The notes beneath the pieces are model-generated. The model had not been told where the DNA came from, did no database searches, and saw only the letters and a program-made list of their open reading frames with translations. The position numbers and the translations under genes were made by a program. From a virus, in UHGV virus genome UHGV-0217160: a DNA stretch of 15,042 nucleotides, one strand, 5' to 3'. Positions 1 through 15,042 of this stretch are shown piece after piece (positions within the stretch are counted from its first letter, which is position 1; the number at the start of each line of letters is the position of its first letter).

Positions 1-3620
<3,620 letters not shown>

Positions 3621-3640
<20 letters not shown>

Positions 3641-4940
3641 TCTCCCGCATATTGCCAGCATGGCCTTTAATGAGCCGCTGATGCTTGAACCCGCCTATGC
3701 GCGGGTTTTCTTTTGTGCGCTTGCAGGCCAGCTTGGGATCAGCCGCCTGACGGATGCGGTGTCCGGCGACAGCCTGACTGCCCAGGAGGCACTCGCGACG
3801 CTGGCATTATCCGGTGATGATGACGGACCACGACAGGCCCGCAGTTATCAGGTCATGAACGGCATCGCCGTGCTGCCGGTGTCCGGCACGCTGGTCAGCC
3901 GGACGCGGGCGCTGCAGCCGTACTCGGGGATGACCGGTTACAACGGCATTATCGCCCGTCTGCAACAGGCTGCCAGCGATCCGATGGTGGACGGCATTCT
4001 GCTCGATATGGACACGCCCGGCGGGATGGTGGCGGGGGCATTTGACTGCGCTGACATCATCGCCCGTGTGCGTGACATAAAACCGGTATGGGCGCTTGCC
4101 AACGACATGAACTGCAGTGCAGGTCAGTTGCTTGCCAGTGCCGCCTCCCGGCGTCTGGTCACGCAGACCGCCCGGACAGGCTCCATCGGCGTCATGATGG
4201 CTCACAGTAATTACGGTGCTGCGCTGGAGAAACAGGGTGTGGAAATCACGCTGATTTACAGCGGCAGCCATAAGGTGGATGGCAACCCCTACAGCCATCT
4301 TCCGGATGACGTCCGGGAGACACTGCAGTCCCGGATGGATGCAACCCGCCGGATGTTTGCGCAGAAGGTGTCGGCATATACCGGCCTGTCCGTGCAGGCT
4401 GTGCTGGATACCGAGGCTGCAGTGTACAGCGGTCAGGAGGCCATTGATGCCGGACTGGCTGATGAACTTGTTAACAGCACCGATGCGATCACCGTCATGC
4501 GTGATGCACTGGATGCACGTAAATCCCGTCTCTCAGGAGGGCGAATGACCAAAGAGACTCAATCAACAACTGTTTCAGCCACTGCTTCGCAGGCTGACGT
4601 TACTGACGTGGTGCCAGCGACGGAGGGCGAGAACGCCAGCGCGGCGCAGCCGGACGTGAACGCGCAGATCACCGCAGCGGTTGCGGCAGAAAACAGCCGC
4701 ATTATGGGGATCCTCAATTGTGAGGAGGCTCACGGACGCGAAGAACAGGCACGCGTGCTGGCAGAAACCCCCGGTATGACCGTGAAAACGGCCCGCCGCA
4801 TTCTGGCCGCAGCACCACAGAGTGCACAGGCGCGCAGTGACACTGCGCTGGATCGTCTGATGCAGGGGGCACCGGCACCGCTGGCTGCAGGTAACCCGGC
4901 ATCTGATGCCGTTAACGATTTGCTGAACACACCAGTGTAA
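3621..4940 (+). CDS. C: Capsid maturation protease / minor capsid protein C-type (S49/ClpP-like), GTG start
   Basis: The ORF track opens at 3507, but the lambda C N-terminus (TAELRNLPHIASMAFNEP...) begins at GTG 3621, preceded by GAGGAGAAGA. The C-terminal part is the Ala/Gln-rich scaffold-like region. Stop TAA at 4938-4940. Confidence 0.85.
4335..4940 (+). CDS. Nu3: Scaffolding protein Nu3-type (in-frame internal start within C)
   Basis: In-frame ATG at 4335 (MDATRRMFAQKVSAYTG...) sits where lambda Nu3 starts inside the 3' part of C. Called from established lambda gene organisation, not from an independent signal in the sequence. Confidence 0.5.
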   Translation: MDATRRMFAQKVSAYTGLSVQAVLDTEAAVYSGQEAIDAGLADELVNSTDAITVMRDALDARKSRLSGGRMTKETQSTTVSATASQADVTDVVPATEGENASAAQPDVNAQITAAVAAENSRIMGILNCEEAHGREEQARVLAETPGMTVKTARRILAAAPQSAQARSDTALDRLMQGAPAPLAAGNPASDAVNDLLNTPV

Positions 4941-4949
4941 GGGATGTTT

Positions 4950-5282
4950 ATGACGAGCAAAGAAACCTTTACCCATTACCAGCCGCTGGGCAACAGTGAC
5001 CCGGCTCATACCGCAACCGCGCCCGGCGGATTGAGTGCGAAAGCGCCTGCAATGACCCCGCTGATGCTGGACACCTCCAGCCGTAAGCTGGTTGCGTGGG
5101 ATGGCACCACCGACGGTGCTGCCGTTGGCATTCTTGCGGTTGCTGCTGACCAGACCAGCACCACGCTGACGTTCTACAAGTCCGGCACGTTCCGTTATGA
5201 GGATGTGCTCTGGCCGGAGGCTGCCAGCGACGAGACGAAAAAACGGACCGCGTTTGCCGGAACGGCAATCAGCATCGTTTAA
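4950..5282 (+). CDS. D: Head decoration protein, lambda gpD-type
   Basis: [110 protein letters not shown]. The ORF track starts two codons earlier at 4944; the lambda-type start is the second ATG. Confidence 0.9.
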
Positions 5283-5337: not shown

Positions 5338-5613
5338 ATGTCGATGTACACAACCGCCCAGCTGCTGGCGGCAAATGAGCAGAAATTTAAGTTTGATCCG
5401 CTGTTTCTGCGTCTCTTTTTCCGTGAGAGCTATCCCTTCACTACGGAGAAAGTCTATCTCTCACAAATTCCGGGACTGGTAAACATGGCGCTGTACGTTT
5501 CGCCGATTGTTTCCGGTGAGGTTATCCGTTCCCGTGGCGGCTCCACCTCTGAATTTACGCCGGGATATGTCAAACCCAAGCACTTAGCATGGCTTTCTGA
5601 GGCTTTCGTGTAG
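5338..5613 (+). pseudogene. E: Major capsid protein E (lambda-type), truncated after codon 82 and fused to 9 unrelated codons
   Basis: MSMYTTAQLLAANEQKFKFDPLFLRLFFRESYPFTTEKVYLSQIPGLVNMALYVSPIVSGEVIRSRGGSTSEFTPGYVKPKH matches the lambda E N-terminus, then LAWLSEAFV-stop. Full-length E is ~341 aa, so about 75% of the gene is missing. The break coincides with the start of the island. Confidence 0.85.
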
Positions 5614-5745
5614 TTGCTGGTTTTTACACTTAATCTTTTGATAATAAAGAATAAGTTTATCTGGCGCTTTCACTGAATTTTCCTCGTTATCTGTGTGTTG
5701 CAATCATCTCTGTATTGCAGCTTGTATTGCTTTTTGGGGCTAAAA

Positions 5746-6981
5746 ATGGCTGGCGAGAACAAACTGAGCGACAAAGCGCTTAAAGGATATCTGGGGAAAC
5801 CCAGAGAAAAGCAGATCACCATTGCTGATGGAAAGGGGCTTTCTATTCGTGTGAGTACCAAGGGGGCTGTGAGCTTTGTTTTCTTCTACAGGTTAGCAGG
5901 TGGCCGGGCTGCTCCGGTCTGGCTAACGTTGGGTAAATATCCTGATATGTCACTCAAACAGGCAAGGGAAAAGCGCGACGAGTGCCGTGGTTGGTTGGCT
6001 GACAAACGTGATCCGCGTATCCAGATTAAGATTCAGGCTGAAGAACGCTTAAAGCCGGTCACAGTGGAGGATGCACTAAATTACTGGTATGAAAATTACT
6101 GTAAGGTGCGTCGTAAAACTCATGCTGTAACGCTTGGCAGATTTCGAAAGCATATCTTTCCCTATATCGGTCATTTGCCCGTAAATGACACTCACCTATA
6201 TGAATGGCTGGACTGTTTTGACCGAATTAAACGTAATGCACCAGTTATGGCGGCGTATGTTTTTTCTGACACTAAATTAGCTCTTCGTTTTTGTCGGGTA
6301 CGCCAGTACGCGACGTGTGATGCTTTAAAGGATTTGCGCATGAGTGATGTGGGGCAGATTGCAGGTAAGCGGGATCGGGTTCTGGATGAAGCCGAACTCG
6401 GCCAGCTCTGGAAGGCAATTTTTGTCGAGCCTGATTTAAAACTAATGTCTGAATACACGCGAAAAATGTTTGTGCTTTGTACAGTATTTGGATGTCGAAT
6501 GAGTGAAGCCCGATTATCAGAATGGAGCGAATGGGATCTCGAAAGTTGGGTTTGGACTGTACCAAAAGATCACTCAAAAACTGGTGTTGAAATCGTCAGA
6601 CCAGTACCTGAAATTCTACGACAGTGGGTAACGGATGTTCACGAAGAGACAAAACATACTGGTTATGTGCTGGGAAGTCTGCGAATTAGAGAAAGCGTAA
6701 GCAAGATTGGGGGGAAAATCGGTAAACGTTTGGGCCATGAAAAACAATGGTCACTACACGACCTTAGAAGAACGCTATCTACTCATCTAAGTGATCTCGG
6801 TGTTGAATTTTATGTAGTAGAACAACTGTTAGGCCATGCGCTACCTGGCGTGGCGGGTGTTTATAACCGGAGTAAGTTTATGGCTAAAAAACTGGATGCT
6901 CTGGAACTCTGGACTACATATCTCAATAGCATCGCAGGTGCTGATTCAAAAGTGACAATCCTCAAACAAAAGGCTGGTTAA
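5746..6981 (+). CDS. int: Tyrosine integrase, P4-type (N-terminal arm-binding domain plus C-terminal catalytic domain)
   Basis: MAGENKLSDKALKGYLGKPREKQITIADGKGLSIRVSTKGAVSFVFFYRLAGG... is a typical P4-family integrase N-terminus. The C-terminal region contains HDLRRT...LGH...GVYNRS, consistent with the R-H-R-Y catalytic set. The ORF track start at 5695 is a 5' extension. Confidence 0.9.
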   Translation: MAGENKLSDKALKGYLGKPREKQITIADGKGLSIRVSTKGAVSFVFFYRLAGGRAAPVWLTLGKYPDMSLKQAREKRDECRGWLADKRDPRIQIKIQAEERLKPVTVEDALNYWYENYCKVRRKTHAVTLGRFRKHIFPYIGHLPVNDTHLYEWLDCFDRIKRNAPVMAAYVFSDTKLALRFCRVRQYATCDALKDLRMSDVGQIAGKRDRVLDEAELGQLWKAIFVEPDLKLMSEYTRKMFVLCTVFGCRMSEARLSEWSEWDLESWVWTVPKDHSKTGVEIVRPVPEILRQWVTDVHEETKHTGYVLGSLRIRESVSKIGGKIGKRLGHEKQWSLHDLRRTLSTHLSDLGVEFYVVEQLLGHALPGVAGVYNRSKFMAKKLDALELWTTYLNSIAGADSKVTILKQKAG

Positions 6982-6982
6982 C

Positions 6983-7207
6983 ATGAAAAAAATGGCAATT
7001 GTTGATAAAAAGGGTCTGGAGTACAATCCTAACATCGATCGTATGATCCGTGAGAAAGAATGTCGGGAGCTAACCACTCTTGCGAACAGCACACGCTGGA
7101 AGCTGGAGAAGGAAGGAAAATTTCCTAAGCGGATCAAGATTGGTGCTACAGCTGTGGCGTATCGCCTCTCTGAAATTCAGGCATGGATTAAAGGGGATTG
7201 GAAGTAA
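6983..7207 (+). CDS. alpA: AlpA-family (Phage_AlpA / MerR-like HTH) transcriptional regulator
   Basis: 74 aa; RELTTLANSTRWKLEKEGKFPKRIKIGATAVAYRLSEIQAWI matches the AlpA helix-turn-helix-wing signature. It lies 1 nt after the int stop, the conserved int-alpA arrangement of P4-like elements and Gram-negative PICIs. Confidence 0.85.
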   Translation: MKKMAIVDKKGLEYNPNIDRMIREKECRELTTLANSTRWKLEKEGKFPKRIKIGATAVAYRLSEIQAWIKGDWK

Positions 7208-7239
7208 TTTTAATTATTTTTTATACGGTAGGAATAAGA

Positions 7240-7995
7240 GTGGACTATATAAGCGAAGTTGTTTTGGATAAAGTTGTGAATGAACTTGCAACAAGGGCTA
7301 AAAATGCAAGGAGAGCAAGGGCTCTAATAGGTATGACTATAATTTCTGTGGCCGTAATTCTTTCTGCGTTTATTTCCTATAGACTAACTGATGACTTTTC
7401 ATTAAAAGGGTTTAGAAGTGGTTTGTTCGCTTCTACAATTTCAAATGGATTCAATGATACATCGGGAATACGTGAAGCGTTTAATCTGGAACTATTAAAT
7501 GTATTTCCAGAAACATCGAAGAGTGATTCGATTGCCAAGTTGTTTTCTCAATTAGATGGAGGAACTCCTCAGTCTAGTGGTGAAAATGAAGTATTAAAAA
7601 AAATTACTAAGGAAGAGAAAGACGAAGCTCTTTCTTATGTAAGTAAATTGGTTGATTACTATGTCAAAGTTGCCGCAGCTGAAAATGGACGTCCGGTTAA
7701 CAAAACAGATAATACATATAGTAGTTTGATTAGTTCATTAGCTCTTTCAGCAGGTGCTGTCGGATTTGTATTATATATCTTACAGATAGCAGTTAGTTTT
7801 GTGCGTTATTACTCTAGACTGGCTGAGTTATATGACTCTCAACGGACTGCGTTAATTGCATCTGACGGCAATGTCGAAACGGCAAAAATACTTATGGATA
7901 TATTATCAAATGATCATGTCGGTTTGGGAAAAGAACCAACTACTTTATATGGAAAAGCATTAGATGTAATTGGCGAGGTTGCAAAGTCAAAATAA
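7240..7995 (+). CDS. Hypothetical membrane protein with two predicted transmembrane helices (AT-rich cargo gene)
   Basis: Open frame 7198-7995. Likely start is GTG 7240 preceded by TAGGA (a TTG at 7198 is the alternative). Hydrophobic segments MTIISVAVILSAFISY and LISSLALSAGAVGFVLYILQIAVSFV flank a ~115-aa hydrophilic loop. Hand-counted sample lines are about 35% G+C against about 60% in the lambda-type genes. No recognisable family. Confidence 0.6.
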   Translation: MDYISEVVLDKVVNELATRAKNARRARALIGMTIISVAVILSAFISYRLTDDFSLKGFRSGLFASTISNGFNDTSGIREAFNLELLNVFPETSKSDSIAKLFSQLDGGTPQSSGENEVLKKITKEEKDEALSYVSKLVDYYVKVAAAENGRPVNKTDNTYSSLISSLALSAGAVGFVLYILQIAVSFVRYYSRLAELYDSQRTALIASDGNVETAKILMDILSNDHVGLGKEPTTLYGKALDVIGEVAKSK

Positions 7996-8019
7996 TACTT
8001 GCGAAGGGGGGCGTTTTTG

Positions 8020-8220
8020 ATGTCCCTCCTGTATATTTATCGAGAGGAAAAATATAATTTATTTGGTTGTGGTTTTACTTTTAAATATATGGTGGACCAT
8101 TATTGCTCAAGGTTTTTATACATGGCTTGTAACTTAAAGACTTTCTGTCAACCCCGTACTTTGAAATCTGCACGGTCGCATTCCGTAATTGTTCTTTGTC
8201 GTTCTTGCGAGGTGTGGTGA
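8020..8220 (+). CDS. Possible small Cys-rich ORF (66 aa) downstream of the 2-TM gene
   Basis: ATG at 8020 preceded by AAGGGGGG (spacing 8). Product MSLLYIYREEKYNLFGCGFTFKYMVDHYCSRFLYMACNLKTFCQPRTLKSARSHSVIVLCRSCEVW has 6 Cys. It lies in AT-rich DNA where chance ORFs are easy, so low confidence. Confidence 0.2.
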   Translation: MSLLYIYREEKYNLFGCGFTFKYMVDHYCSRFLYMACNLKTFCQPRTLKSARSHSVIVLCRSCEVW

Positions 8221-8268
8221 TACATCTCTCATGTCAGTTGTTTTTTGACCGTGGGAACATAAAACAAA

Positions 8269-8287
8269 GGCGACAAGAATAGTCGCC
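8269..8287 (-). terminator. Candidate intrinsic terminator for the leftward RHH-SWIM operon
   Basis: GGCGAC-aagaata-GTCGCC stem-loop. On the minus strand it is followed by a U-rich run (complement of 8255-8268 AACATAAAACAAAG), about 70 nt beyond the SWIM gene stop. Confidence 0.35.
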
Positions 8288-8356
8288 AGTGGCATAACAC
8301 TAAACTTAAGCGTATTCAGAATACCAAGTTGTAGGCTGATGGAAAATAGAATTAGT

Positions 8357-8713
8357 TCAATATTTAGGTGGTTCTACAAGAGCGTTTATCATTGCTCTCA
8401 AATTATCTCGGACACTTATCCAAGTCTGTTCTGCTCGTTCTAATTCATCAGTGTACAGCTTTAATGTTTTATCTATGCCATATGTGGCTATTAAATTTAT
8501 AGCTTCTTGTAACTTTTCGGGGTTATTCCTTCTTGGGGGCGTAAATATACCTCGGATTTTTCCGGTGATTAAAGCTTTACGGTGTCTGCATAGAATACCT
8601 TTACTTCCAGCAGGACAATTACAAGTCATGATTAGCGAGCCAGAATCGTTTGATACAGTGACTATGTATACATCCAAACTACTGCTACTTGTTGCGAAGA
8701 ATTCGTATTTCAT
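8357..8713 (-). CDS. SWIM-type zinc-finger protein (hypothetical)
   Basis: 118 aa; contains C-N-C-PAGSKGIL-C-R-H (CxC-x8-CxH), the SWIM zinc-finger signature. Strong SD (AAGGAG, 8 nt upstream on the minus strand). Sits 27 nt downstream of the RHH gene in the same orientation. Confidence 0.6.
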   Translation of the reverse strand: MKYEFFATSSSSLDVYIVTVSNDSGSLIMTCNCPAGSKGILCRHRKALITGKIRGIFTPPRRNNPEKLQEAINLIATYGIDKTLKLYTDELERAEQTWISVRDNLRAMINALVEPPKY

Positions 8714-8740
8714 GTTTTAGCTCCTTGAATTCAGGTATTC

Positions 8741-8935
8741 TTATCCTTTTGGTTCAATTCCGCGACGTAGCAGCTCTTTGCGCCCTAATTCTTTAAGCCA
8801 GTTGGCTAGGCTTACCCCATCGTTACTGGCTTCGTTATCAAACTGCTCCTTCAATTCAGGAACTATGCGCATATGGAACGGTGGGGCCTTTCCTGTGCCT
8901 TTTGGTTTTTTATCGCGCTTAATAATCGTTGACAT
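8741..8935 (-). CDS. Arc/Mnt-like ribbon-helix-helix DNA-binding protein (candidate repressor)
   Basis: 64 aa; PPFHMRIVPELKEQF followed by ASNDGVSLANWLKELGRKEL parallels the Arc repressor beta-strand and helix A (PQFNLRWPREVLDLV...ENGRSVNSEIYQRV). Its start codon abuts the palindromic operators. Confidence 0.65.
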   Translation of the reverse strand: MSTIIKRDKKPKGTGKAPPFHMRIVPELKEQFDNEASNDGVSLANWLKELGRKELLRRGIEPKG

Positions 8936-8991
8936 GTGTACACCTATAGCGTTATGTTTTTATTCGATAGGTGTACACCTTAACACGTGTG
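8934..8991. promoter_or_regulatory. Divergent control region with two copies of a 12-bp palindromic operator (core GTGTACAC) plus an ACACGTGT palindrome
   Basis: ATGTGTACACCT at 8934-8945 (one mismatch from perfect) and the perfect palindrome AGGTGTACACCT at 8969-8980, centres 35 bp apart; ACACGTGT at 8984-8991. Located between the leftward RHH gene and the rightward small-ORF/primase operon. Confidence 0.5.
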
Positions 8992-9074
8992 CATTTAAAA
9001 ACGCAACGCCCCGCAGTGCGGGAACACATGCAGGGCGTCTAACCACCAACGATAGCAACAGTATCGAGGTAGCT

Positions 9075-9278
9075 ATGAGAAATCATACCACACACCCGCA
9101 AGGGCGGGACTCGCACAACCTGAATAAATACATCTGGCGTTTTATCGCCCTGAGCACCGCACAACCACGCGTAATACACATCGAGGCCGCCAGCGAACAG
9201 GAAGCCCGACTGCAATCCCCAACTGGCTACGTGATGATATTCGCCGCCCGTATTCGTCAGGAGGTGTGCCATGAATGA
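9075..9278 (+). CDS. Hypothetical protein (68 aa), first gene of the primase operon
   Basis: ATG 9075 with GAGG 6 nt upstream. The stop overlaps the next start (ATGAATGA). The track's 8778-9278 ORF is a 5' over-extension running antisense through the RHH gene. Confidence 0.45.
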   Translation: MRNHTTHPQGRDSHNLNKYIWRFIALSTAQPRVIHIEAASEQEARLQSPTGYVMIFAARIRQEVCHE

Positions 9279-9495
9279 TCTTTATTTTAAAGTGCTGACA
9301 CATGCTGAAAACGCGCTCGTTTGTGGCAAAAATATGCGAGAAATCTTATCAACCTGGCTTGATGGGACAACAAATGCGGAACACGATGAACGGGATGCTA
9401 ATTTAGCTGGAGCGTTAATTACGTTACTTGATCCTGTCATCAAAGAGCTGGATGAAGCTATAAAAATACACGACCAGAGCTATACCGGAGAATAA
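9271..9495 (+). CDS. Hypothetical protein (74 aa)
   Basis: ATG 9271 with AGGAGG 8 nt upstream; translationally coupled to both neighbours. No family recognised. Confidence 0.55.
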   Translation: MNDLYFKVLTHAENALVCGKNMREILSTWLDGTTNAEHDERDANLAGALITLLDPVIKELDEAIKIHDQSYTGE

Positions 9496-9497
9496 AA

Positions 9498-9785
9498 ATG
9501 AAAAATAAATTTTCTGGCTTTATTGCCAGCGGTCAAACTCATTCAAAAATCAGCCTTGGGGATATTTTCAAAGATAGCTATGGCTATCGGGTAAAGATTA
9601 TTTCGGTTGATGATCGCCGTGTCTCTTATTTGCGTGATGGTTATGATTTTGAATGTGTTATGCCGCGTCAGCAGTTCGAAAGAGATTTCATTCTGGTAAA
9701 AAATTGCAAGACAGATAATCAGAGGCGTTCCGCAGGCTATATCCGCAAAATTCGGGCAATGTTAGTTGCCGGAGGTAACAAATGA
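9498..9785 (+). CDS. Hypothetical protein (95 aa)
   Basis: ATG 9498 with GGAGA upstream; stop overlaps the primase start (ATGA). No family recognised. Confidence 0.55.
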   Translation: MKNKFSGFIASGQTHSKISLGDIFKDSYGYRVKIISVDDRRVSYLRDGYDFECVMPRQQFERDFILVKNCKTDNQRRSAGYIRKIRAMLVAGGNK

Positions 9786-11602
9786 AACGTGCTCCGAACT
9801 TAAAATACCAACCGCGCGACAAAATGACAGAAGTCATCATTTTTGCTGGCAGTGATGCCTGGAGCCATGCAAAAGAATGGAATGAATGGGCGGGTAAGCA
9901 TATTGCAGCAGATGATACACCACCAGTAATTCTGGGTACGGAACAACTGGAAAACCTGGATGATATGCAAATTATCGATGAAGGCCGTCATTATGTGCGT
10001 GTTTATCGTGCCGGAAAGATCGCAGAGAAAAATCTGACGAAGGTTGCGACATTACTTGCTATTGCAGGCGTAAAGGAAGCACGTTGTTACCGTAGCTTTG
10101 TTGATCGAGAGCCTGAAAACTGGACTCCGCGCCTTGTCGGCCTAAAAGCTGAAGCGGAGCATGGGGAAAGTCTGGTGATTGAACTGCCAGTGAAGAAGGC
10201 TGAGCGCAAAAATGACGAGCGTGCTTCATCTTTGGCGTTGAATCAGATGGGGGCCAGCCAGCGCGGTGAAGTTCTCCTTGCACATTACGGCGGCGAACTG
10301 GCAATCAATGCCGACTCTGACACCGTTCATCATTACAACGGCGTTGTATGGGAGCCGGTTCAGGATAAAGAGTTACAGCGTGCTATGGCGCAGATTTTCA
10401 TTGATGCGGAGATCAGCTATTCGCAGAACGCCATTAAATCGGCGGTAGATACCATGAAGTTAAGTTTGCCTGTAATGGGGAATACAGCCCGTAACCTGAT
10501 TGGATTCAGTAACGGGGTATTTGATACCAGAACTGGTAATTTTCGGGAGCATAACAAAAACGACTGGTTGTTAATTGCCAGTGAATTACCTTTCAGCCCA
10601 CCAGCAGAGGGGGAAACGCTGGCAACACATGCGCCGAATTTCTGGAAGTGGTTGCGCCGTTCGGTGGCTGAGAATGACCGCAAGGCAGATCGCGTACTGG
10701 CGGCATTATTCATGGTGCTGGCGAACCGGTACGACTGGCAGTTATTCATTGAGGTAACAGGGCCGGGGGGAAGTGGTAAAAGTGTGATGGCGGAGATTTG
10801 CACCATGCTGGCGGGTAAGGCTAATACAGTATCAGCAAGCATGAAGGCGCTGGAAGATGCAAGGGAACGTGCGTTAGTGGTTGGCTTTTCGCTGATTATC
10901 ATGCCGGATATGACCCGCTACGCTGGTGATGGGGCAGGGATTAAGGCCATTACAGGCGGTGACAAGGTGGCAATTGACCCGAAACACAAAGCCCCCTATT
11001 CAACGCGTATTCCGGCAGTAGTGCTGGCGGTTAACAATAACGCCATGTCATTCAGTGACCGCAGCGGGGGGATCTCACGTCGTCGGGTGATATTCAATTT
11101 TTCGGAAGTTGTACCGGAGAACGAACGCGATTCGATGCTGGCGGAAAAAATAGAAGGTGAGCTGGCGGTAGTGATTCGTCATCTGCTTACACGGTTTGCT
11201 GATCAGGACGAAGCCAGACGCCTGTTATATGAGCAGCAGAAATCTGAAGAAGCACTGGCGATAAAGCGAGAGGGGGATTCGCTGGTGGACTTCTGCGGCT
11301 ATCTCATGGCATCGGTAATGTGTGATGGCCTGTTAGTGGGTAATGCTGAAATTGTGCCATTCAGCCCACGCAGGTATCTCTATCATGCCTATCTGGCTTA
11401 TATGAGGGCACATGGGTTTGGTAAACCTGTAACACTGACGCGCTTCGGTAAAGATATGCCGGGGGCAATGGCGGAATATGGCAGGGAGTATATGAAACGG
11501 AAAACGAAGCACGGTTTGCGTTCAAACGTGACACTGACGGAGGAATCAGAAGACTGGATGCCATCATGTGTATCGGTCACTAATGACGATAGCAAAAATT
11601 AA
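9782..11602 (+). CDS. Phage/plasmid primase-helicase, P4-family (D5/SF3-type NTPase domain)
   Basis: 606 aa; Walker A GPGGSGKSV and a Walker-B-like hydrophobic stretch ending in D (LIIMPDM). Size and position (after int/alpA, immediately before the iteron ori) match the pri/rep gene of P4-like elements and PICIs. Confidence 0.85.
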   Translation: MKRAPNLKYQPRDKMTEVIIFAGSDAWSHAKEWNEWAGKHIAADDTPPVILGTEQLENLDDMQIIDEGRHYVRVYRAGKIAEKNLTKVATLLAIAGVKEARCYRSFVDREPENWTPRLVGLKAEAEHGESLVIELPVKKAERKNDERASSLALNQMGASQRGEVLLAHYGGELAINADSDTVHHYNGVVWEPVQDKELQRAMAQIFIDAEISYSQNAIKSAVDTMKLSLPVMGNTARNLIGFSNGVFDTRTGNFREHNKNDWLLIASELPFSPPAEGETLATHAPNFWKWLRRSVAENDRKADRVLAALFMVLANRYDWQLFIEVTGPGGSGKSVMAEICTMLAGKANTVSASMKALEDARERALVVGFSLIIMPDMTRYAGDGAGIKAITGGDKVAIDPKHKAPYSTRIPAVVLAVNNNAMSFSDRSGGISRRRVIFNFSEVVPENERDSMLAEKIEGELAVVIRHLLTRFADQDEARRLLYEQQKSEEALAIKREGDSLVDFCGYLMASVMCDGLLVGNAEIVPFSPRRYLYHAYLAYMRAHGFGKPVTLTRFGKDMPGAMAEYGREYMKRKTKHGLRSNVTLTEESEDWMPSCVSVTNDDSKN

Positions 11603-11615
11603 ACTTATGGAATAA

Positions 11616-11847
11616 CTGTTCACCACTGTTCACCCTGTCATAAATATCTTTTATATCAGTATATTATAGGGTGAACAGTTATTTATGAACTGTTCACCAA
11701 ACTATTCACTGTTCACCTTTTTGATTGTTTATTGAGCTTCAAGGGTGAACAGTGGTGAACAGTTGGTGAATAGTTTTTGTGAAACTGTTCACCCATTAAC
11801 ATTATGAATTAAAAGAGAAAATATCAAAAGGTGAACAGGTGAAGGGT
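11616..11847. repeat. Iteron-type replication origin: 9 perfect and at least 1 degenerate copy of GGTGAACAG in both orientations, with an AT-rich unwinding block
   Basis: CTGTTCACC at 11616, 11626, 11690, 11709, 11785; GGTGAACAG at 11670, 11744, 11754, 11830; GGTGAATAG at 11765. Tandem copies have 10-11 bp periodicity. AT-rich stretch at 11635-11669. Directly downstream of the primase gene. Confidence 0.8.
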
Positions 11848-11889
11848 TAAAACGCAAAAATTTTAATTTACTGCTGTGAGATAAAGCCT

Positions 11890-12135
11890 ATGACAGCGAA
11901 GCACACAAAAAAATCACAATCGCACGCCCTTGATTTGACGGAACACTGGTTAAGGGTGTCGATAAAAATCATCGACCGCAACGCCGGGGAAGGTTACGCG
12001 AAAGCACATCCCGAACTGATTAGCGCATTCATGACAACGGCGGCTGCAAACTTTGCCACTCTGACCGAACGGGAGATTGCTGAAGCGGAGGAAGTGACAA
12101 CAATCAATATTAAGTCCGGAGAGCAGGCAGCATGA
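11890..12135 (+). CDS. Hypothetical protein (81 aa)
   Basis: ATG 11890; stop overlaps the start of the SSB-like gene (ATGA). No family recognised. Confidence 0.5.
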   Translation: MTAKHTKKSQSHALDLTEHWLRVSIKIIDRNAGEGYAKAHPELISAFMTTAAANFATLTEREIAEAEEVTTINIKSGEQAA

Positions 12136-12581
12136 CGGCGCAAATATCAGTTTACGGGCGGTTGGTGGACGACCCGCAGACAAAACAGACCAGCAAGGGC
12201 ACCCCCATGACGCTGGCGCGTATGGCGGTATCACTGCCCTGCAGTCAGTCGGATGACGGTCAGGCGACGATGTGGTTATCTGTCCTGGCGTTTGGCAGAC
12301 AAGCCGACGCGCTGGCAAAGCATCACAAAGGCGAACTCCTGAGCGTGGCGGGTAACATGCAGATGAGCCAGTGGACTGGACAGAACGGCGAAACGCGGCA
12401 GGGCTGGCAGGTTATCGCAGACAGCGTAATCAGTGCGCGATCGGTGCGACCGGGCGGCAATAAAGGCCAACAGGGGCAGGCTACTGACGCACTGAACAGA
12501 GCAAAACAACAGGCAGATCAGCAAGGAAGCCAGCCACCAGTGGGAGATAATGAGCAATGGGGAGATGATATCCCGTTTTAA
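12132..12581 (+). CDS. Single-stranded DNA-binding protein-like (OB fold with SSB-type acidic C-terminal tip)
   Basis: 149 aa; N-terminal region resembles the SSB OB fold (ISVYGRLVDDPQ...MWLSVLAFGRQADALAKHHKGELLSVAGNMQMSQWTGQNGETRQGWQV), followed by a Gly/Gln-rich linker and the C-terminus DDIPF, as in E. coli SSB. Confidence 0.7.
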   Translation: MTAQISVYGRLVDDPQTKQTSKGTPMTLARMAVSLPCSQSDDGQATMWLSVLAFGRQADALAKHHKGELLSVAGNMQMSQWTGQNGETRQGWQVIADSVISARSVRPGGNKGQQGQATDALNRAKQQADQQGSQPPVGDNEQWGDDIPF

Positions 12582-12600
12582 ATATTGCCAATAAAAAAAG

Positions 12601-12624
12601 CCGGAAAAAATAAATTTTCCGGCA
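12601..12624. terminator. Perfect 9-bp-stem hairpin (GCCGGAAAA / TTTTCCGGC) between the replication module and the capsid operon
   Basis: Stem 12601-12609 pairs with 12616-12624, loop 6 nt. The A-run is 5' of the stem on the plus strand and there is no 3' U tract, so terminator function for the rightward transcript is uncertain. Confidence 0.3.
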
Positions 12625-12797
12625 TGCTACATAAATCCCGACCAAAGGGAGTGAAGATATTAACACTAATTGTCCGCACTGAAGTTGTCACCCCAAAACT
12701 TTATACAACATTGCACTCGGTTGCATGTGTTCGCATGACAAATATCGGTGATAGCATATATCCACAATTATTTTTAATGAATGCAAAGAGGATGCGT

Positions 12798-13838
12798 ATG
12801 GTTGATTTATATTCGCCTACTCAGCTTGTACAGGTGGTTAATGCTGTAGATGTACAAAAACAACTAAATGCGTTGTTTACCAGTTTGTTTTTTACTCGCT
12901 CGGTAATGTTTGAATCGCGCGATATTATTCTTGATACAATCGACGATCCAAATATCCCAATTGCAGCATTTTGTTCTCCTATGGTGGGTAGTAAAGTTTC
13001 ACGTGACGAAGGGTACGAATCAAAAACAATTCGTCCAGGCTATATGAAGCCGAAAAGCAGCATTGATCCAAATAAGTTAGCTGTGCGCCCTGCTGGTGTA
13101 TCACCTGAGCAATACAATGCTTTTGGGGCGCGTAATATTAAAGTTAAACAGGCGATTGTAAATCAAGCTAAAGCTATTCGTGCACGTATTGAATGGCTTG
13201 CCGTTCAGGCAATCACAACGGGGAAAAATATCATTGAGGGCGATGGTATTGAACGTTATGAGCTGGACTGGAATATTAAACCACAAAATATCATCACTCA
13301 GTCTGGCGGTGCTGAGTGGTCAGGTAAGGATAAAGAAACTTTTGATCCAAATGATGATATTGAGAGCTACGCAGAATTTAGTGAGGGCGTCACTAATATC
13401 ATCATTATGGGCGGTAATGTATGGAAGAAATACCGTTCATTCAGAGCGATAAAAGAGGCTCTGGATACCCGTCGTGGTTCTAATTCCGAACTGGAAACGG
13501 CCCTTAAAGACCTTGGTGATTCGGTGAGTTTTAAAGGATATATGGGCGATGTTGCGATTGTTGTTTACAGCGGGCGTTATACCGACGAGGACGGAACTGA
13601 AAAACATTTCCTTGATCCTGATTTGATGGTGCTTGGCAATACGGCTCTTCAGGGGATTGTCGCCTATGGCGGTATTCAGGATCCGGAGCTAATCCGAATG
13701 GGGCTGACTAAAGCCGAACTTGCACCGAAAAACTATATTGTGCCTGGTGATCCTGCTATTGAATATGTGCAGACACATTCAGCACCACAGCCAATACCGG
13801 CCCGCATCAATCGTTTTGTTACCGTTCGCATTGGCTAA
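12798..13838 (+). CDS. Major capsid protein, lambda gpE-family (HK97-fold), diverged island-encoded paralog
   Basis: 346 aa from ATG 12798 (AAGAGGA upstream), which aligns with the lambda E start. Alignable end to end with lambda E: MVDLYSPTQLV / MSMYTTAQLL; GYMKPK / GYVKPK; ITQSGGAEWSGKDKETFDPNDDIESYA / ITQSGGTEWSKRDKSTYDPTDDIEAYA; DTRRGSNSELETALKDLG identical over 14 of 18; GDVAIVVYSG identical. The track ORF from 12585 is a 5' over-extension through the hairpin. Confidence 0.88.
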   Translation: MVDLYSPTQLVQVVNAVDVQKQLNALFTSLFFTRSVMFESRDIILDTIDDPNIPIAAFCSPMVGSKVSRDEGYESKTIRPGYMKPKSSIDPNKLAVRPAGVSPEQYNAFGARNIKVKQAIVNQAKAIRARIEWLAVQAITTGKNIIEGDGIERYELDWNIKPQNIITQSGGAEWSGKDKETFDPNDDIESYAEFSEGVTNIIIMGGNVWKKYRSFRAIKEALDTRRGSNSELETALKDLGDSVSFKGYMGDVAIVVYSGRYTDEDGTEKHFLDPDLMVLGNTALQGIVAYGGIQDPELIRMGLTKAELAPKNYIVPGDPAIEYVQTHSAPQPIPARINRFVTVRIG

Positions 13839-13847
13839 GGGGGAGCA

Positions 13848-14189
13848 ATGGCTACTCATTACACTGAACTCATGGCTGGCACTGAAGCACTGGTGACTAC
13901 GCTGGGGATATTTTCAGCTAATAAAGGGGTAATTCCTGCATTTACGCCACTGATGCAGGAAGATGCAACAGGTGCACTGGTAGTATGGGATGGTTCGAGC
14001 GTAGGTAAAGCGGTTTATGTTTCCGCTGTACAAATCGACACCGCGAAAAAAACACAGGCTCAGGTCTATAAGACAGGTGTCTTAAATGTTGATGCTCTGA
14101 ACTGGCCTGAGTCTGTTAAAGAACTGTCAGTAAAGGTTGCAGCGTTTGTTGGCTCAGGTATTTCTGTTCAGCCGCTGGCTCGTGTGTAA
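13848..14189 (+). CDS. Head decoration protein, lambda gpD-family, diverged island-encoded paralog
   Basis: 113 aa. AFTPLMQEDATGALVVWDGSSVGKAV...VYKTGVLNVDALNWPE...AAFVGSGISV aligns with lambda [27 protein letters not shown]...[16 protein letters not shown]...[11 protein letters not shown]-rich SD AAGGGGGAG. Immediately downstream of the E-like gene, the same D/E pairing as lambda but in reverse order. Confidence 0.8.
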   Translation: MATHYTELMAGTEALVTTLGIFSANKGVIPAFTPLMQEDATGALVVWDGSSVGKAVYVSAVQIDTAKKTQAQVYKTGVLNVDALNWPESVKELSVKVAAFVGSGISVQPLARV

Positions 14190-14200
14190 AGGGGGATACA

Positions 14201-14584
14201 ATGCAGAATGATTACAATGACCTTAAGCCAATTGCCGAAATGATGTACCCGAATCAAGCTGTAGAGGAATTAAAAGCTATCGCTGACAAAATGTGTTTAA
14301 GCGAGCGCCTTGTTGATATGAATCAGGTGATGGAAATTACAACCCTGAGTCGTCGTACACTGCTAAACCTTGAGGCTAGTGGAGAGTTCCCGGAGCGTGT
14401 GCAGGTTACGGAAGGGCGTAAGGCCTGGTATTTAAGTGAAGTGATCGACTGGATAAATAATATTCCTCGCGCTTCTGAATATTGCCGCGTACCTGTCCCA
14501 AAAAAGCCAGATGCGGCGCTATGCCTCAAGATTGAGCGTGTACGCCGCAATGCACGGGATGGTCGCTATAAGCTGATTGGTTGA
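14201..14584 (+). CDS. AlpA/MerR-type winged-HTH DNA-binding protein encoded immediately upstream of cos (candidate packaging specificity or regulatory factor)
   Basis: 127 aa; MEITTLSRRTLLNLEASGEFPERVQVTEGRKAWYLSEVIDWI matches the AlpA HTH-wing pattern and parallels the Nu1 N-terminal HTH (LADIFGASIRTIQNWQEQGMPVLRGGGKGNEVLYDSAAVIKWY). SD AAAGGGGGA, like the D-like gene. Stop is 27 nt before cosQ-type sequence. Confidence 0.7.
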   Translation: MQNDYNDLKPIAEMMYPNQAVEELKAIADKMCLSERLVDMNQVMEITTLSRRTLLNLEASGEFPERVQVTEGRKAWYLSEVIDWINNIPRASEYCRVPVPKKPDAALCLKIERVRRNARDGRYKLIG

Positions 14585-14610
14585 TGAAATTAGGGCCCGC
14601 TCTGGCTGGC

Positions 14611-14810
14611 GGGTCCTTTCCGGCGATCCAGAACGTTACGGGGCGTCAGGCGCGCAGTTTTTCGCTATTTGTGAAAATTTTCCTGTTTAAGGCGTTTCCG
14701 TTCTTCTTCGCCGTAACTTAATGTTTTTATTAAAAACACCCCCTAAAAAGAAAGGAAACGACAGGTGCTAAAAACAGGCTTTTTGGCCTCTGTCGTTTCC
14801 TTTCTCTGGT
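14611..14810 (+). other. cos: cos packaging site, lambda-type: cosQ, cosN (variant 12-nt cohesive-end sequence) and cosB (R3, IHF-site region, R2, R1)
   Basis: GGGTCCTTTCCGG...GTTACG (cosQ side), then by homology the nick site between 14640 and 14641 with predicted overhang GGGCGTCAGGCG (lambda: GGGCGGCGACCT, as recalled). R3 CGTTTCCGTTCT at 14693-14704, R2 GAAAGGAAACGACA at 14749-14762, R1 TGTCGTTTCCTTTCTCT at 14791-14807. Confidence 0.8.
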
Positions 14811-14829
14811 TTTGTCCGTGGAATGAACA

Positions 14830-15042
14830 ATGGAAGCCAACAAAAAGCAGCTGGCTGACATTTTCGGTGCGAGTATCCGTACCATTCAGAACTAGCAGGA
14901 GCAGGGAATGCCCGTTCTGCGAGGCGGTGGCAAGGGTAATGAGGTGCTTTATGACTCTGCCGCCGTCATAAAATGGTATGCCGAAAGGGATGCTGAAATT
15001 GAGAACGAAAAGCTGCGCCGGGAGGTTGAAGAACTGCGGCAG
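14830..15042 (+). pseudogene. Nu1: Terminase small subunit Nu1-type, interrupted by an in-frame TAG at codon 22; 3'-partial at window end
   Basis: ATG 14830: MEANKKQLADIFGASIRTIQN, then TAG (14893-14895) where lambda Nu1 has Trp, then QEQGMPVLRGGGKGNEVLYDSAAVIKWYAERDAEIENEKLRREVEELRQ in the same frame to the window end. AGGAG at 14897-14901 precedes the in-frame ATG at 14908. Confidence 0.75.

Follow-up and report, generated by a model that had tools for sequence, protein, structure and literature searches.

The island within helper gene E

The window, by which we mean the whole 15,042-nucleotide stretch of virus genome UHGV-0217160 analysed here, carries on its plus strand, as are all genes discussed below, the intact gene D of a lambda-like helper prophage (4950..5282; 99% identical to lambda D) and the N-terminal fragment of helper gene E (5338..5582), which ends at the attL of an island (core at about 5573-5582). 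This fragment aligns to lambda E nt 1-245 and to positions 1-78 of the Phage_cap_E profile. The first-pass annotation had taken the neighbouring E to be truncated and the element to be a genome of ~15 kb; the gene is instead interrupted by an island of 10,955 bp (10.95 kb), co-oriented with the helper late operon, and its C-terminal three quarters lie beyond the island, outside the window. In L001 (NZ_CP117020), an island at least 99.96% identical to the window's sits between the N- and C-terminal fragments of E, and the rest of the gene (lambda E nt 236-1026) is found beyond it, with prophage tail genes next. The same gene E junction was present in 173 of the 5,426 complete E. coli genomes. 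The 411-aa integrase has 83-100% identity among the capE-embedded loci L007, L010 and L012, and L009, at a chromosomal site, carries one with 100% identity to it. Site-specific integration accounts for the break in helper E, and excision would make the gene whole again.

The backbone (5583..12581), assigned from Pfam and from the RefSeq annotation of the near-identical L001 island, consists of int (5746-6981; a tyrosine integrase of 411 aa), alpA (6983-7207), a variable zone (7198-9495), a DUF4222 gene (9498-9785), a D5-type primase gene (9782-11602), an 81-aa ORF (11890-12135) and ssb (12132-12581). Its int, alpA, D5-type primase and SSB are those of a PICI-type backbone, as the first reading of the sequence had proposed. 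The resemblance to P4 is limited to the D5-type primase, the integrase and AlpA, and Sid/Psu and Delta had zero Pfam matches among island ORFs of at least 50 aa. Neither Pfam nor the RefSeq annotation places a portal, protease, connector or TerL gene in the island. With int, alpA and pri/rep co-oriented at the left, a length within 10-20 kb and no lysis or tail genes, the element has the gene layout and size described for Gram-negative PICIs (Fillol-Salom 2018). It is a helper-embedded PICI of the 11capE or E:Phage_cap_E:80 type, located at codon ~80 of helper gene E.

In the island, the capsid and decoration genes described below are followed by a conserved third gene of the module (14201..14584), which encodes a 127-aa AlpA-family wHTH protein (Pfam Phage_AlpA, 7.5e-09; phrog_2790, 3.2e-49; PDB AlpA 8C3T, 2.2e-09). 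This gene also follows D-like in L005 and L007-L012, with a dN/dS of 0.18. When it was considered as the packaging redirector Rpp (PDB 6HLK/6HN7), the PDB sequence search matched only AlpA 8C3T, and the 94-aa ORF of the CFT073-type island likewise gave no match. Next comes a cos-like region with a lambda-type nu1 remnant of the island (14620..15042); here 14653-15042 aligns to lambda nt 13-403 at 95.7% identity, and the cosN-equivalent 12-mer (14641-14652) matches at 7/12 positions. The nu1 ATG (14830) is followed by an in-frame TAG (14893-14895), and in RefSeq this gene, broken by an internal stop, is listed as a pseudogene of the terminase small subunit.

The capsid and decoration genes and their leader

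The E-like gene (12798..13838) encodes a 346-aa major capsid protein of the lambda-E family with a predicted HK97 fold, belonging to a satellite clade, and the D-like gene (13848..14189), which begins 9 nt 3′ of it, encodes a 113-aa head decoration protein of the gpD/SHP family. E-like matched Pfam PF03864 Phage_cap_E (1.4e-41; 143.1 bits, cut-off 22.9) over profile positions 4-327 of 329, phrog_29 major head protein in PHROGs (3.4e-89) and, in a PDB sequence search, 3BQW (2.6e-121) and lambda gpE 7VI9 (2.3e-76). D-like matched Pfam PF02924 HDPD (4.5e-15; 56.3 bits, cut-off 29.1), phrog_49 head decoration (1.3e-25) and, by the same kind of PDB search, phage 21 SHP 1TD0 (4.7e-16) and lambda gpD (1e-11). 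On these scores, both family assignments are far above chance. The first-pass annotation, made from the letters alone, had described two full-length ORFs of just these sizes, alignable end to end with lambda E and D, lower in G+C (about 40% versus about 60%) and not recent duplicates of the neighbouring D and E. All of this holds, the profile and structure searches having returned capsid and decoration families. Aligned end to end, E-like shares 43.5% identity with lambda E and 42.6% with the reconstructed helper E, and D-like shares 38.5% with lambda D and 39.4% with the helper D of the window. The estimate of base composition was roughly right, with a GC of 43.4% (GC3 35.7%) for E-like and 46.8% for D-like against 55.8% for helper E and 59.0% for helper D.

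The AF2 model of E-like (pLDDT 80.7, pTM 0.82) predicts a complete HK97 fold, with N-arm, E-loop, spine helix and A and P domains, that is superposable on gpE, and Foldseek gave TM scores of 0.91 to 3BQW, 0.87 to 7SJ5 and 0.83 to 7VI9. Residues 1-150, which form the N-arm, E-loop and spine helix on the model, are the most diverged from lambda E (16-34% identity), and the A-domain region is 47-80% identical. The E-loop and N-arm had been singled out at first pass as the elements that set curvature; both indeed belong to the most diverged part, but neither sequence nor model contains an insertion or deletion predicting altered curvature, the TM score to lambda gpE being 0.83-0.87 over the full length. 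A literature search on the assembly residues of lambda gpE (W308A) yielded nothing usable. In the lambda capsid structure, gpD contacts the E-loop and the N-arm. Since the divergence of E-like is concentrated there, where lambda gpD binds, E-like and D-like could be a cognate pair.

Between ssb and E-like lies an untranslated leader (12582..12797; GC 37%) with an A-tract (12593-12599), a hairpin (12600-12623) predicted as a terminator on the minus strand, a repeat motif TTTATACAACATTGCA..TTGCA (12700-12725), an extended -10-like element TGATAGCAT (12749-12757) and an RBS, GAGG (12788-12791), ahead of the E-like ATG at 12798. When five diverged islands were aligned, these elements were kept amid otherwise dissimilar sequence, the repeat motif and the -10-like element at a spacing of 48-49 or 58-59 bp. 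The suggestion that a late promoter might lie in this leader was upheld in part: the conserved extended -10-like element and repeat motif speak for it, whereas a sigma-70 consensus scan of the plus strand found neither a full consensus promoter nor a -35 element. Rfam, at gathering thresholds, had zero matches in the whole window, leader included. The motif TTTATACAAYATTGCA occurs once in the window, which alone is at chance level (65/200 shuffles), so that its weight comes only from its conservation across islands. The leader plausibly carries an activator-type promoter-like element. An N-terminal extension or delta domain of E-like was considered for the same region and rejected; the frame is open from 12585 but has stops in related islands.

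Occurrence and evolution of the pair

This variant of the E-like/D-like module was found in 365 of the 5,426 complete E. coli genomes (about 7%). At every locus examined, in Escherichia, Serratia, Edwardsiella and Cedecea, the two genes adjoin on int/alpA/primase backbones. Some islands with the pair sit at chromosomal sites (L003/L004, L005 and L009), others within gene B or gene E of a helper; in L006 the interrupted gene is the helper's portal gene, and that helper has both its D and its E intact. In L006, E-like is 45.6% identical to the E of its own helper and 44.0% to a foreign E; the sequences therefore give no hint that E-like and the E of its helper have co-adapted to form mixed capsomers. 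As a separate observation, L014 is a single scaffold with an E::E-like chimera, which, if real, would mean that E and E-like can partly stand in for each other.

Recent capture from a sequenced phage was considered and rejected, because megablast against 50,697 phage records returned no match and the 437 tblastn matches of E-like among phages were all at most 42% identical. A midpoint-rooted NJ tree set a 44-member clade, containing every PICI-verified protein, apart from a 66-member clade of phage E. Judged by sequence comparison, the E-like/D-like pair is a satellite-specific lineage, long separated from phage E and D.

Across 11 loci of the four genera, both genes are full-length with zero internal stops, and their order and spacing are kept. 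Pairwise dN/dS was 0.05-0.09 for E-like and about 0.09 for D-like, with 0.04-0.07 for the integrase, at dS values of up to about 1 or more, which indicates strong purifying selection on both genes. A mirrored divergence of the two genes was not borne out, the agreement being imperfect: in L009, D-like is 95% but E-like 85% identical, and L007 shows the opposite trend. This mismatch indicates recombination inside the module.

Possible roles of the pair and relation to known satellites

Among Gram-negative PICIs, capsid and decoration homologs are found in 21/29 reference islands (PMC10111431). Islands embedded in capE are a natural place to look for a function, since helper E is disabled in cis there. 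The only deletion tests so far were made in EcCICFT073 and gave no phenotype, yet E-like and D-like have been evolutionarily maintained. In that island, packaged DNA was phage-sized, and deletion of c1499 or c1500 left transfer and interference unchanged (PMC6092414); when its genes 3′ of ori were expressed singly, only c1503 (RppA) inhibited lambda (PMC6739421). That the pair does something is nevertheless argued by its old satellite-only lineage, purifying selection, constant pairing and conserved leader. If so, the missing phenotype probably reflects redundancy of a structural role, if any, with helper E and D under the conditions of that assay.

We regard the pair as a conserved late-zone capsid/decoration module of a helper-embedded Gram-negative PICI, and a structural role as shell and cement, which we favour by a little over even chances, as the most likely of its functions. 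Late transcription would start in the leader, at a promoter that depends on an activator; as long as the island stays embedded, read-through from the helper's Q-antiterminated late transcript would add to it. E-like would then be the shell subunit and D-like its cognate cement. With genes for portal, scaffold/protease and large terminase all missing from the island, E-like would have to rely on the helper's gpB, gpC/Nu3 and terminase, and could form heads, alone or jointly, into which cos-cut island concatemers are packaged; by arithmetic, four island units come to 43.8 kb, or 90% of the lambda genome. Such a satellite would be less dependent on helper E, whose expression the island blocks until excision.

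A stronger form of this proposal, which we consider doubtful, would make the island a "half capsid-forming" satellite, with its own shell and cement and only portal, scaffold/protease, terminase and tail borrowed, and the capE-embedded form would hold the helper shell gene hostage in cis. If true, heads in induced cells would be largely or wholly satellite-type shells, possibly of another T number or stability, and the island would be intermediate between classical PICIs and cf-PICIs.

Alternatively, as the first-pass annotation proposed, E-like might redirect capsid size, by co-assembling with helper E (e.g., as pentons) or by replacing it, and lower the T number until the head admits the ~11-kb island but not the ~50-kb helper. 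This resembles SaPIbov5 Ccm, which occupies the pentamers of T=4 shells (PMC8569155), and small capsids are also made by PmCI172, which has a capsid homolog (PMC6092414). Volume scaling puts the capacity of a T=3 shell at about 13.6 kb and of a T=4 shell at about 21 kb, room for roughly one and two island units respectively, and the regions of inter-capsomer contact, N-arm and E-loop, are the most diverged in E-like. However, the DNA packaged by EcCICFT073 was all phage-sized and its capsid and decoration genes had no effect on interference or transfer when deleted (PMC6092414, PMC6739421); full-size heads would suffice, since four island units nearly fill the lambda length; a Ccm-like penton role needs no dedicated decoration protein; and the E-like sequence and model lack a curvature-altering indel. 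A change of capsid size is conceivable, yet none of the data points to one, and we judge redirection to be rather unlikely.

The pair could also be a back-up copy for the embedded state, replacing the interrupted helper gene so that heads can be made before or without excision. Tommasini et al. proposed this (PMC10111431), and the island does split E yet carry an intact E homolog. As a general reason, replacement of a broken E does not stand, since the pair is also found in PICIs without an interrupted E, namely the chromosomal-site islands and the portal-gene island L006. Moreover, D-like would be left unexplained because helper D is intact here, and the E-like lineage long predates any one integration event, which makes a back-up function quite unlikely.

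It is improbable that the pair is a poison, by which E-like and/or D-like would enter or cap helper capsid assembly as dominant-negative proteins and lower helper yield, with no satellite capsids built. Helper capsid assembly is a common satellite target (reviewed in PMC6893505), and the conserved A-domain could let E-like enter helper capsomers. Nevertheless, deletion of c1499 or c1500 did not restore lambda plaques, c1503 being the only gene inhibitory alone (PMC6092414, PMC6739421); a satellite that needs the same heads would be harmed too; and a conserved, foldable full shell protein with a cognate cement exceeds what a poison requires. That the pair is a functionless relic of late genes captured from a former helper is scarcely credible, for although clustered capture of helper late genes is known in PICI late zones (PMC10111431), the adjoining nu1 copy is a pseudogene and the EcCICFT073 deletions had no phenotype (PMC6092414), both genes are full-length in 11/11 loci of four genera, with order, spacing and promoter-like element conserved and dN/dS of 0.05-0.09 in pairs with dS up to about 1 or more.

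The kind of element and the arrangement of capsid and decoration genes in E. coli are already published, and the window holds another copy, so that the novelty implied at first pass does not stand. E. coli PICIs with capsid and decoration homologs were reported in 2018 (EcCICFT073 c1499/c1500; PMC6092414), a satellite capsid homolog was described in SaPIbov5 Ccm (PMC8569155), and the 2023 study of Tommasini, Mageeney & Williams (PMC10111431) described 201 instances of an 11-kb PICI that sits in helper gene E and brings a capsid gene of its own. The main text of the last discusses the capsid gene and leaves the decoration gene, selection on the pair and the leader unmentioned; it also reports that 11capE/50icd composite virions were not recoverable. 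A literature search for later functional work on HE-PICI capsid genes found none. What is added here is the satellite-only clade, the strong purifying selection indicated for both genes, the constant pairing whatever the site and the conserved promoter-like leader.

By its published description, 11capE of E. coli NRG857c is likewise an 11-kb island, co-oriented at ~codon 80 of a lambda-like prophage E, and both share a short attL/attR identity core, an int-alpA-primase backbone, their own E-family capsid and a cos-like segment shared with the helper, with no difference in kind. EcCICFT073, the sole experimentally tested member of the clade, has the c1499/c1500 homologs adjacent in the PICI late zone 3′ of ssb (L003/L004). 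PDB 3BQW, an E. coli CFT073 protein that is probably c1499, belongs to the same satellite capsid clade as E-like, and this type of capsid (3BQW, P0038; 351 aa) is about 54-55% identical to the window's E-like. Unlike the window's island, EcCICFT073 lies at a chromosomal site, has a 68-aa ORF in place of the leader and lacks the conserved promoter-like motifs and the AlpA-like third gene, but has an intact Nu1 homolog.

Compared with lambda gpE/gpD and phage 21 SHP, E-like and D-like are of the same families and folds, with lengths within 5 residues and adjacent genes, but identity is 38-44%, GC is lower, and E-like precedes D-like in the island whereas D precedes E in lambda; moreover, they are not part of a head operon that also encodes portal, protease and scaffold. 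Ccm (Hawkins et al. 2021, PMC8569155) is also a satellite homolog of a helper HK97-fold capsid protein on a cos-packaged island, but it forms pentons and turns prolate phi12 heads into T=4 isometric ones, has no partner decoration protein, is of an unrelated sequence family and acts in a Gram-positive host; size redirection is so far without demonstration in any E. coli PICI of the window's type. The cf-PICIs (EcCIEDL933; bioRxiv 10.1101/2022.09.08.507074) similarly combine a PICI backbone with satellite-lineage capsid genes apart from those of phages; they encode capsid, protease, portal, connectors, HNH, TerS and TerL, whereas the island studied here carries only shell, cement and a dead nu1.

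Insertion of the island within the head operon

The window opens in a lambda-type head operon, which runs from terminase A (from 94) through W, portal B and C/Nu3 to the D gene (4950-5282) and the first ~82 codons of the E gene (5338-5582) of the helper, the lambda-like prophage hosting the island; past ~5582 the GC content drops and the island begins. Aligned to lambda E, the left E fragment covers nt 1-245 and the right fragment nt 236-1026, which puts the insertion of the 10,955-bp island near codon 80, with a core of ~10 bp (about 5573-5582, roughly CCnAAGCA). In the locus L001 of E. coli MLI106K3 (NZ_CP117020), 99.96-100% identical to the window in its island part and 99.0% in its prophage part, the E fragments lie at 8754-8998 and 19944-20734, and the part beyond the window end contains, in order, a nu1 pseudogene, a DUF2971 gene, the remaining three quarters of E, FI, FII and tail genes. 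The lambda-type E, which the first-pass annotation had taken as truncated, is thus interrupted by the island. The E-fragment/integrase junction recurs in 173 of 5,426 complete E. coli genomes, while 12585-14600, 100% identical to a stretch of the MLI106K3 genome, is present at no less than 80% coverage in 365 of the 5,426; no deposited phage matched this stretch at megablast level. The variable zone of the island encodes a SWIM zinc-finger protein on the minus strand as well as a HicB-like antitoxin (8357-8935, minus strand, and 8865-9278); the antitoxin gene overlaps a plus-strand Icd-like cell-division-inhibitor gene in the RefSeq annotation.

At the right end of the window, 14620-15042 carries a remnant of lambda-type cosB and nu1 (the 5′ part of the gene), with 95.7% identity to lambda nt 13-403. 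The island nu1 starts with ATG at 14830 and contains an in-frame amber TAG at codon 22 (14893-14895), and the 12-mer at the cosN position (14641-14652, GGGCGTCAGGCG) matches the helper/lambda cohesive end (GGGCGGCGACCT) at only 7 of 12 positions. Since this segment is lambda-like and the N-terminal DNA-binding domain of the helper's own Nu1 is a different one, the cosB specificity is lambda-type in the island and not in the current helper. The slot from AlpA-like/nu1 to the right end of the island varies between islands, containing DUF2971, DUF3892, Abi_C, TIR-domain or AF_1680-family genes (L001 18904-19662; L002 15993-17930; L009 13180-13941; L011 12230-13546; L012 12106-13254), which suggests anti-phage defence cargo.

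Identity and lineage of the capsid and decoration genes

The E-like (12798-13838, plus strand, 346 aa) and D-like (13848-14189, plus strand, 113 aa) products matched Pfam Phage_cap_E (1.4e-41, nearly the whole profile) and HDPD (4.5e-15), and were assigned in PHROGs to major head protein (3.4e-89) and head decoration (1.3e-25), respectively. Global alignment gave E-like 43.5% identity with lambda E and 42.6% with the helper E (reconstructed from its two fragments and 98.5% identical to lambda E), and D-like 38.5-39.4% with the D proteins of lambda and the window. The pair is of lower GC (43.4% for E-like and 46.8% for D-like) than the helper E (55.8%) and D (59.0%), so that the diverged, full-length and GC-poor paralogs recognized in the first-pass annotation are borne out. 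The AlphaFold2 model of E-like (pLDDT 80.7, pTM 0.82) superposed on the HK97-type structures of PDB 3BQW, lambda gpE 7SJ5 and the lambda procapsid subunit 7VI9 with TM of 0.91, 0.87 and 0.83, and its predicted fold is complete, without large insertion or deletion. Divergence is highest in residues 1-150, which form the N-arm, E-loop and long spine helix on the model (16-34% identical to lambda E), and lower in residues 151-300 of the A-domain region (47-80%), including a near-invariant block, LDTRRGSNSELETA...GDVAIVVYSG.

Among PDB sequences, D-like matched phage 21 SHP (4.7e-16) and lambda gpD (1e-11), and the best match of E-like was 3BQW (2.6e-121), followed by lambda gpE (2.3e-76). This 2008 structural-genomics crystal structure is labelled 'putative capsid protein of prophage (E. 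coli CFT073)'; it shares about 96% identity with P0038, which is the capsid protein of a CFT073-type phage-inducible chromosomal island (PICI) locus (L003/L004 10001-11056), so a structure from the satellite capsid clade has been available since 2008 under a prophage label. 3BQW is probably c1499, the capsid homolog of the E. coli PICI EcCICFT073, and would hence be a satellite rather than a prophage protein.

The identity of E-like to its database homologs declines gradually from 99% to about 50% across Escherichia, Cedecea, Scandinavium, Serratia, Edwardsiella, Salmonella and Lelliottia, and then drops in one step to the 38-43% of the lambda-E proper group; among INPHARED phages none was closer than 42%. 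A midpoint-rooted NJ tree resolved two clades, one of 44 members containing every capsid protein verified as PICI-borne and the other of 66 members containing lambda E and the E of the Edwardsiella helper. Every context retrieved had an int-alpA-primase/helicase backbone with E-like directly followed by D-like, located at chromosomal sites in E. coli (L003/L004, L009), at a fis-adjacent site in Serratia (L005), within the portal gene of an Edwardsiella prophage with its own D and E intact (L006), or within gene E (L007, L008, L010-L012, Cedecea among them). Thus the pair is a general PICI module and not a by-product of interrupting E. In the Edwardsiella island, E-like is about as similar to the E of its own helper (45.6%) as to lambda E (44.0%). 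In Cedecea, the helper prophage around a capE-embedded island (L012 14301-21041) has a head module of lambda type (portal_2, S49 protease, D, E) together with contractile-tail genes resembling those of P2 (baseplate V, W, J, I; sheath).

Relative to the window, the L009 island, flanked in gene calls by chromosomal genes (ynfA side, rspA side) rather than E fragments, has a 100% identical integrase (2940-4175 vs window 5746-6981) but only 85% and 95% identical E-like and D-like, indicating that modules are shuffled between islands. A chimeric capsid gene (2801-3829, protein P0044) on a 4.4-kb metagenome scaffold (L014; ENA ERZ28600228 scaffold_2787) is lambda-type E to about nt 668 and then near-identical to the window E-like through the stop, with an identical protein and 3 nt differences in that part, followed by D-like and the start of the AlpA-like gene at 100% identity. 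The crossover falls on the longest exact E/E-like match, of only 17 nt, and the chimera could reflect true recombination between E and E-like or an assembly error.

The leader upstream of E-like

The E-like frame is open upstream to 12585, an openness not conserved in related islands, so translation is placed at 12798, behind GAGG (12788-12791). Across five subclade islands (window, L005, L007, L009, L012), three elements are kept amid otherwise dissimilar sequence: an A-tract (12593-12599) just after ssb with a strong hairpin (12600-12623) oriented as a minus-strand intrinsic terminator, whose structure is kept with differing stems (ΔG -14.5 to -19.2); the motif TTTATACAAyATTGCA-N5-TTGCA (12700-12725); and an extended -10-like TGnTAnnAT (12749-12757). 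The motif and the -10 are separated by 48-49 bp in three islands and by 58-59 bp in the other two; such a shift of roughly one turn of the helix is what a phased activator site would show. The leader has no -35 hexamer, so the plus-strand consensus promoter scan was empty, and it gave no Rfam match. An activator-dependent promoter is therefore a plausible candidate; the late promoter anticipated here by the first-pass annotation has the conserved -10-like element and motif in its favour, and the missing -35 and empty scan against it. The motifs are absent from the more distant CFT073-type and Edwardsiella islands, in which a 68-70-aa ORF overlaps the capsid start. The A-tract and hairpin could serve as an antisense RNA, an ori element or a 3′-end stabiliser. 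No minus-strand gene lies to the right of the hairpin, and a minus-strand promoter-like site occurs within E-like (13162-13134).

Possible roles of the pair and known satellites

The island genes include no portal, scaffold/protease, large terminase or connectors. E-like could act as a shell subunit with D-like as its cognate cement, in heads whose assembly would have to use the helper gpB, gpC/Nu3 and terminase, and the D-binding and capsomer-contact parts of E may have diverged together with D. As a conserved cement makes sense only on its own lattice, selection on D-like would imply that E-like lattice sites exist. We favour this structural reading tentatively, with slightly less than even confidence. 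In EcCICFT073, deletion of c1499 or of the head decoration homolog c1500 neither relieved lambda interference nor altered transfer, and packaged DNA was all phage-sized (Fillol-Salom et al. 2018, PMC6092414). The silent deletions would fit redundancy with the helper E/D, a redundancy that capE-embedded islands take away in cis until they excise.

Redirection of capsid size, the first-pass interpretation, has an analogue in the SaPIbov5 capsid homolog Ccm, which forms pentons and gives T=4 shells (PMC8569155), but four island units make 43.8 kb, or 90% of the lambda genome, in agreement with the phage-sized DNA of EcCICFT073, so that small capsids are not required; such redirection seems unlikely. 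That the pair is only a back-up copy is a still less likely account. A poison subunit is improbable; when the genes downstream of the EcCICFT073 ori were expressed singly, lambda was blocked by c1503 (RppA) alone (Fillol-Salom et al. 2019, PMC6739421). The pair can hardly be a relic: 11 of 11 copies are full length and stop-free, and pairwise dN/dS is 0.05-0.09 for E-like (for instance dN 0.097 and dS 1.07 against L009) and about 0.09 for D-like, compared with 0.18 for the AlpA-like gene and 0.04-0.07 for the integrase, values which clearly point to maintenance of both genes for function.

The first-pass observation of a satellite-borne pair is confirmed and its interpretation partly supported; what keeps the pair of interest is the role of two satellite genes, for shell and cement, that are both widespread and strongly conserved. 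Elements of this kind have been described before. Of 29 reference GN-PICIs, 21 carry capsid genes (PMC10111431), and the 11capE element, inserted in a lambdoid prophage at profile codon 80 of Phage_cap_E, was reported with 201 further instances (Tommasini et al. 2023, PMC10111431), a capE-embedded class to which the window almost certainly belongs.
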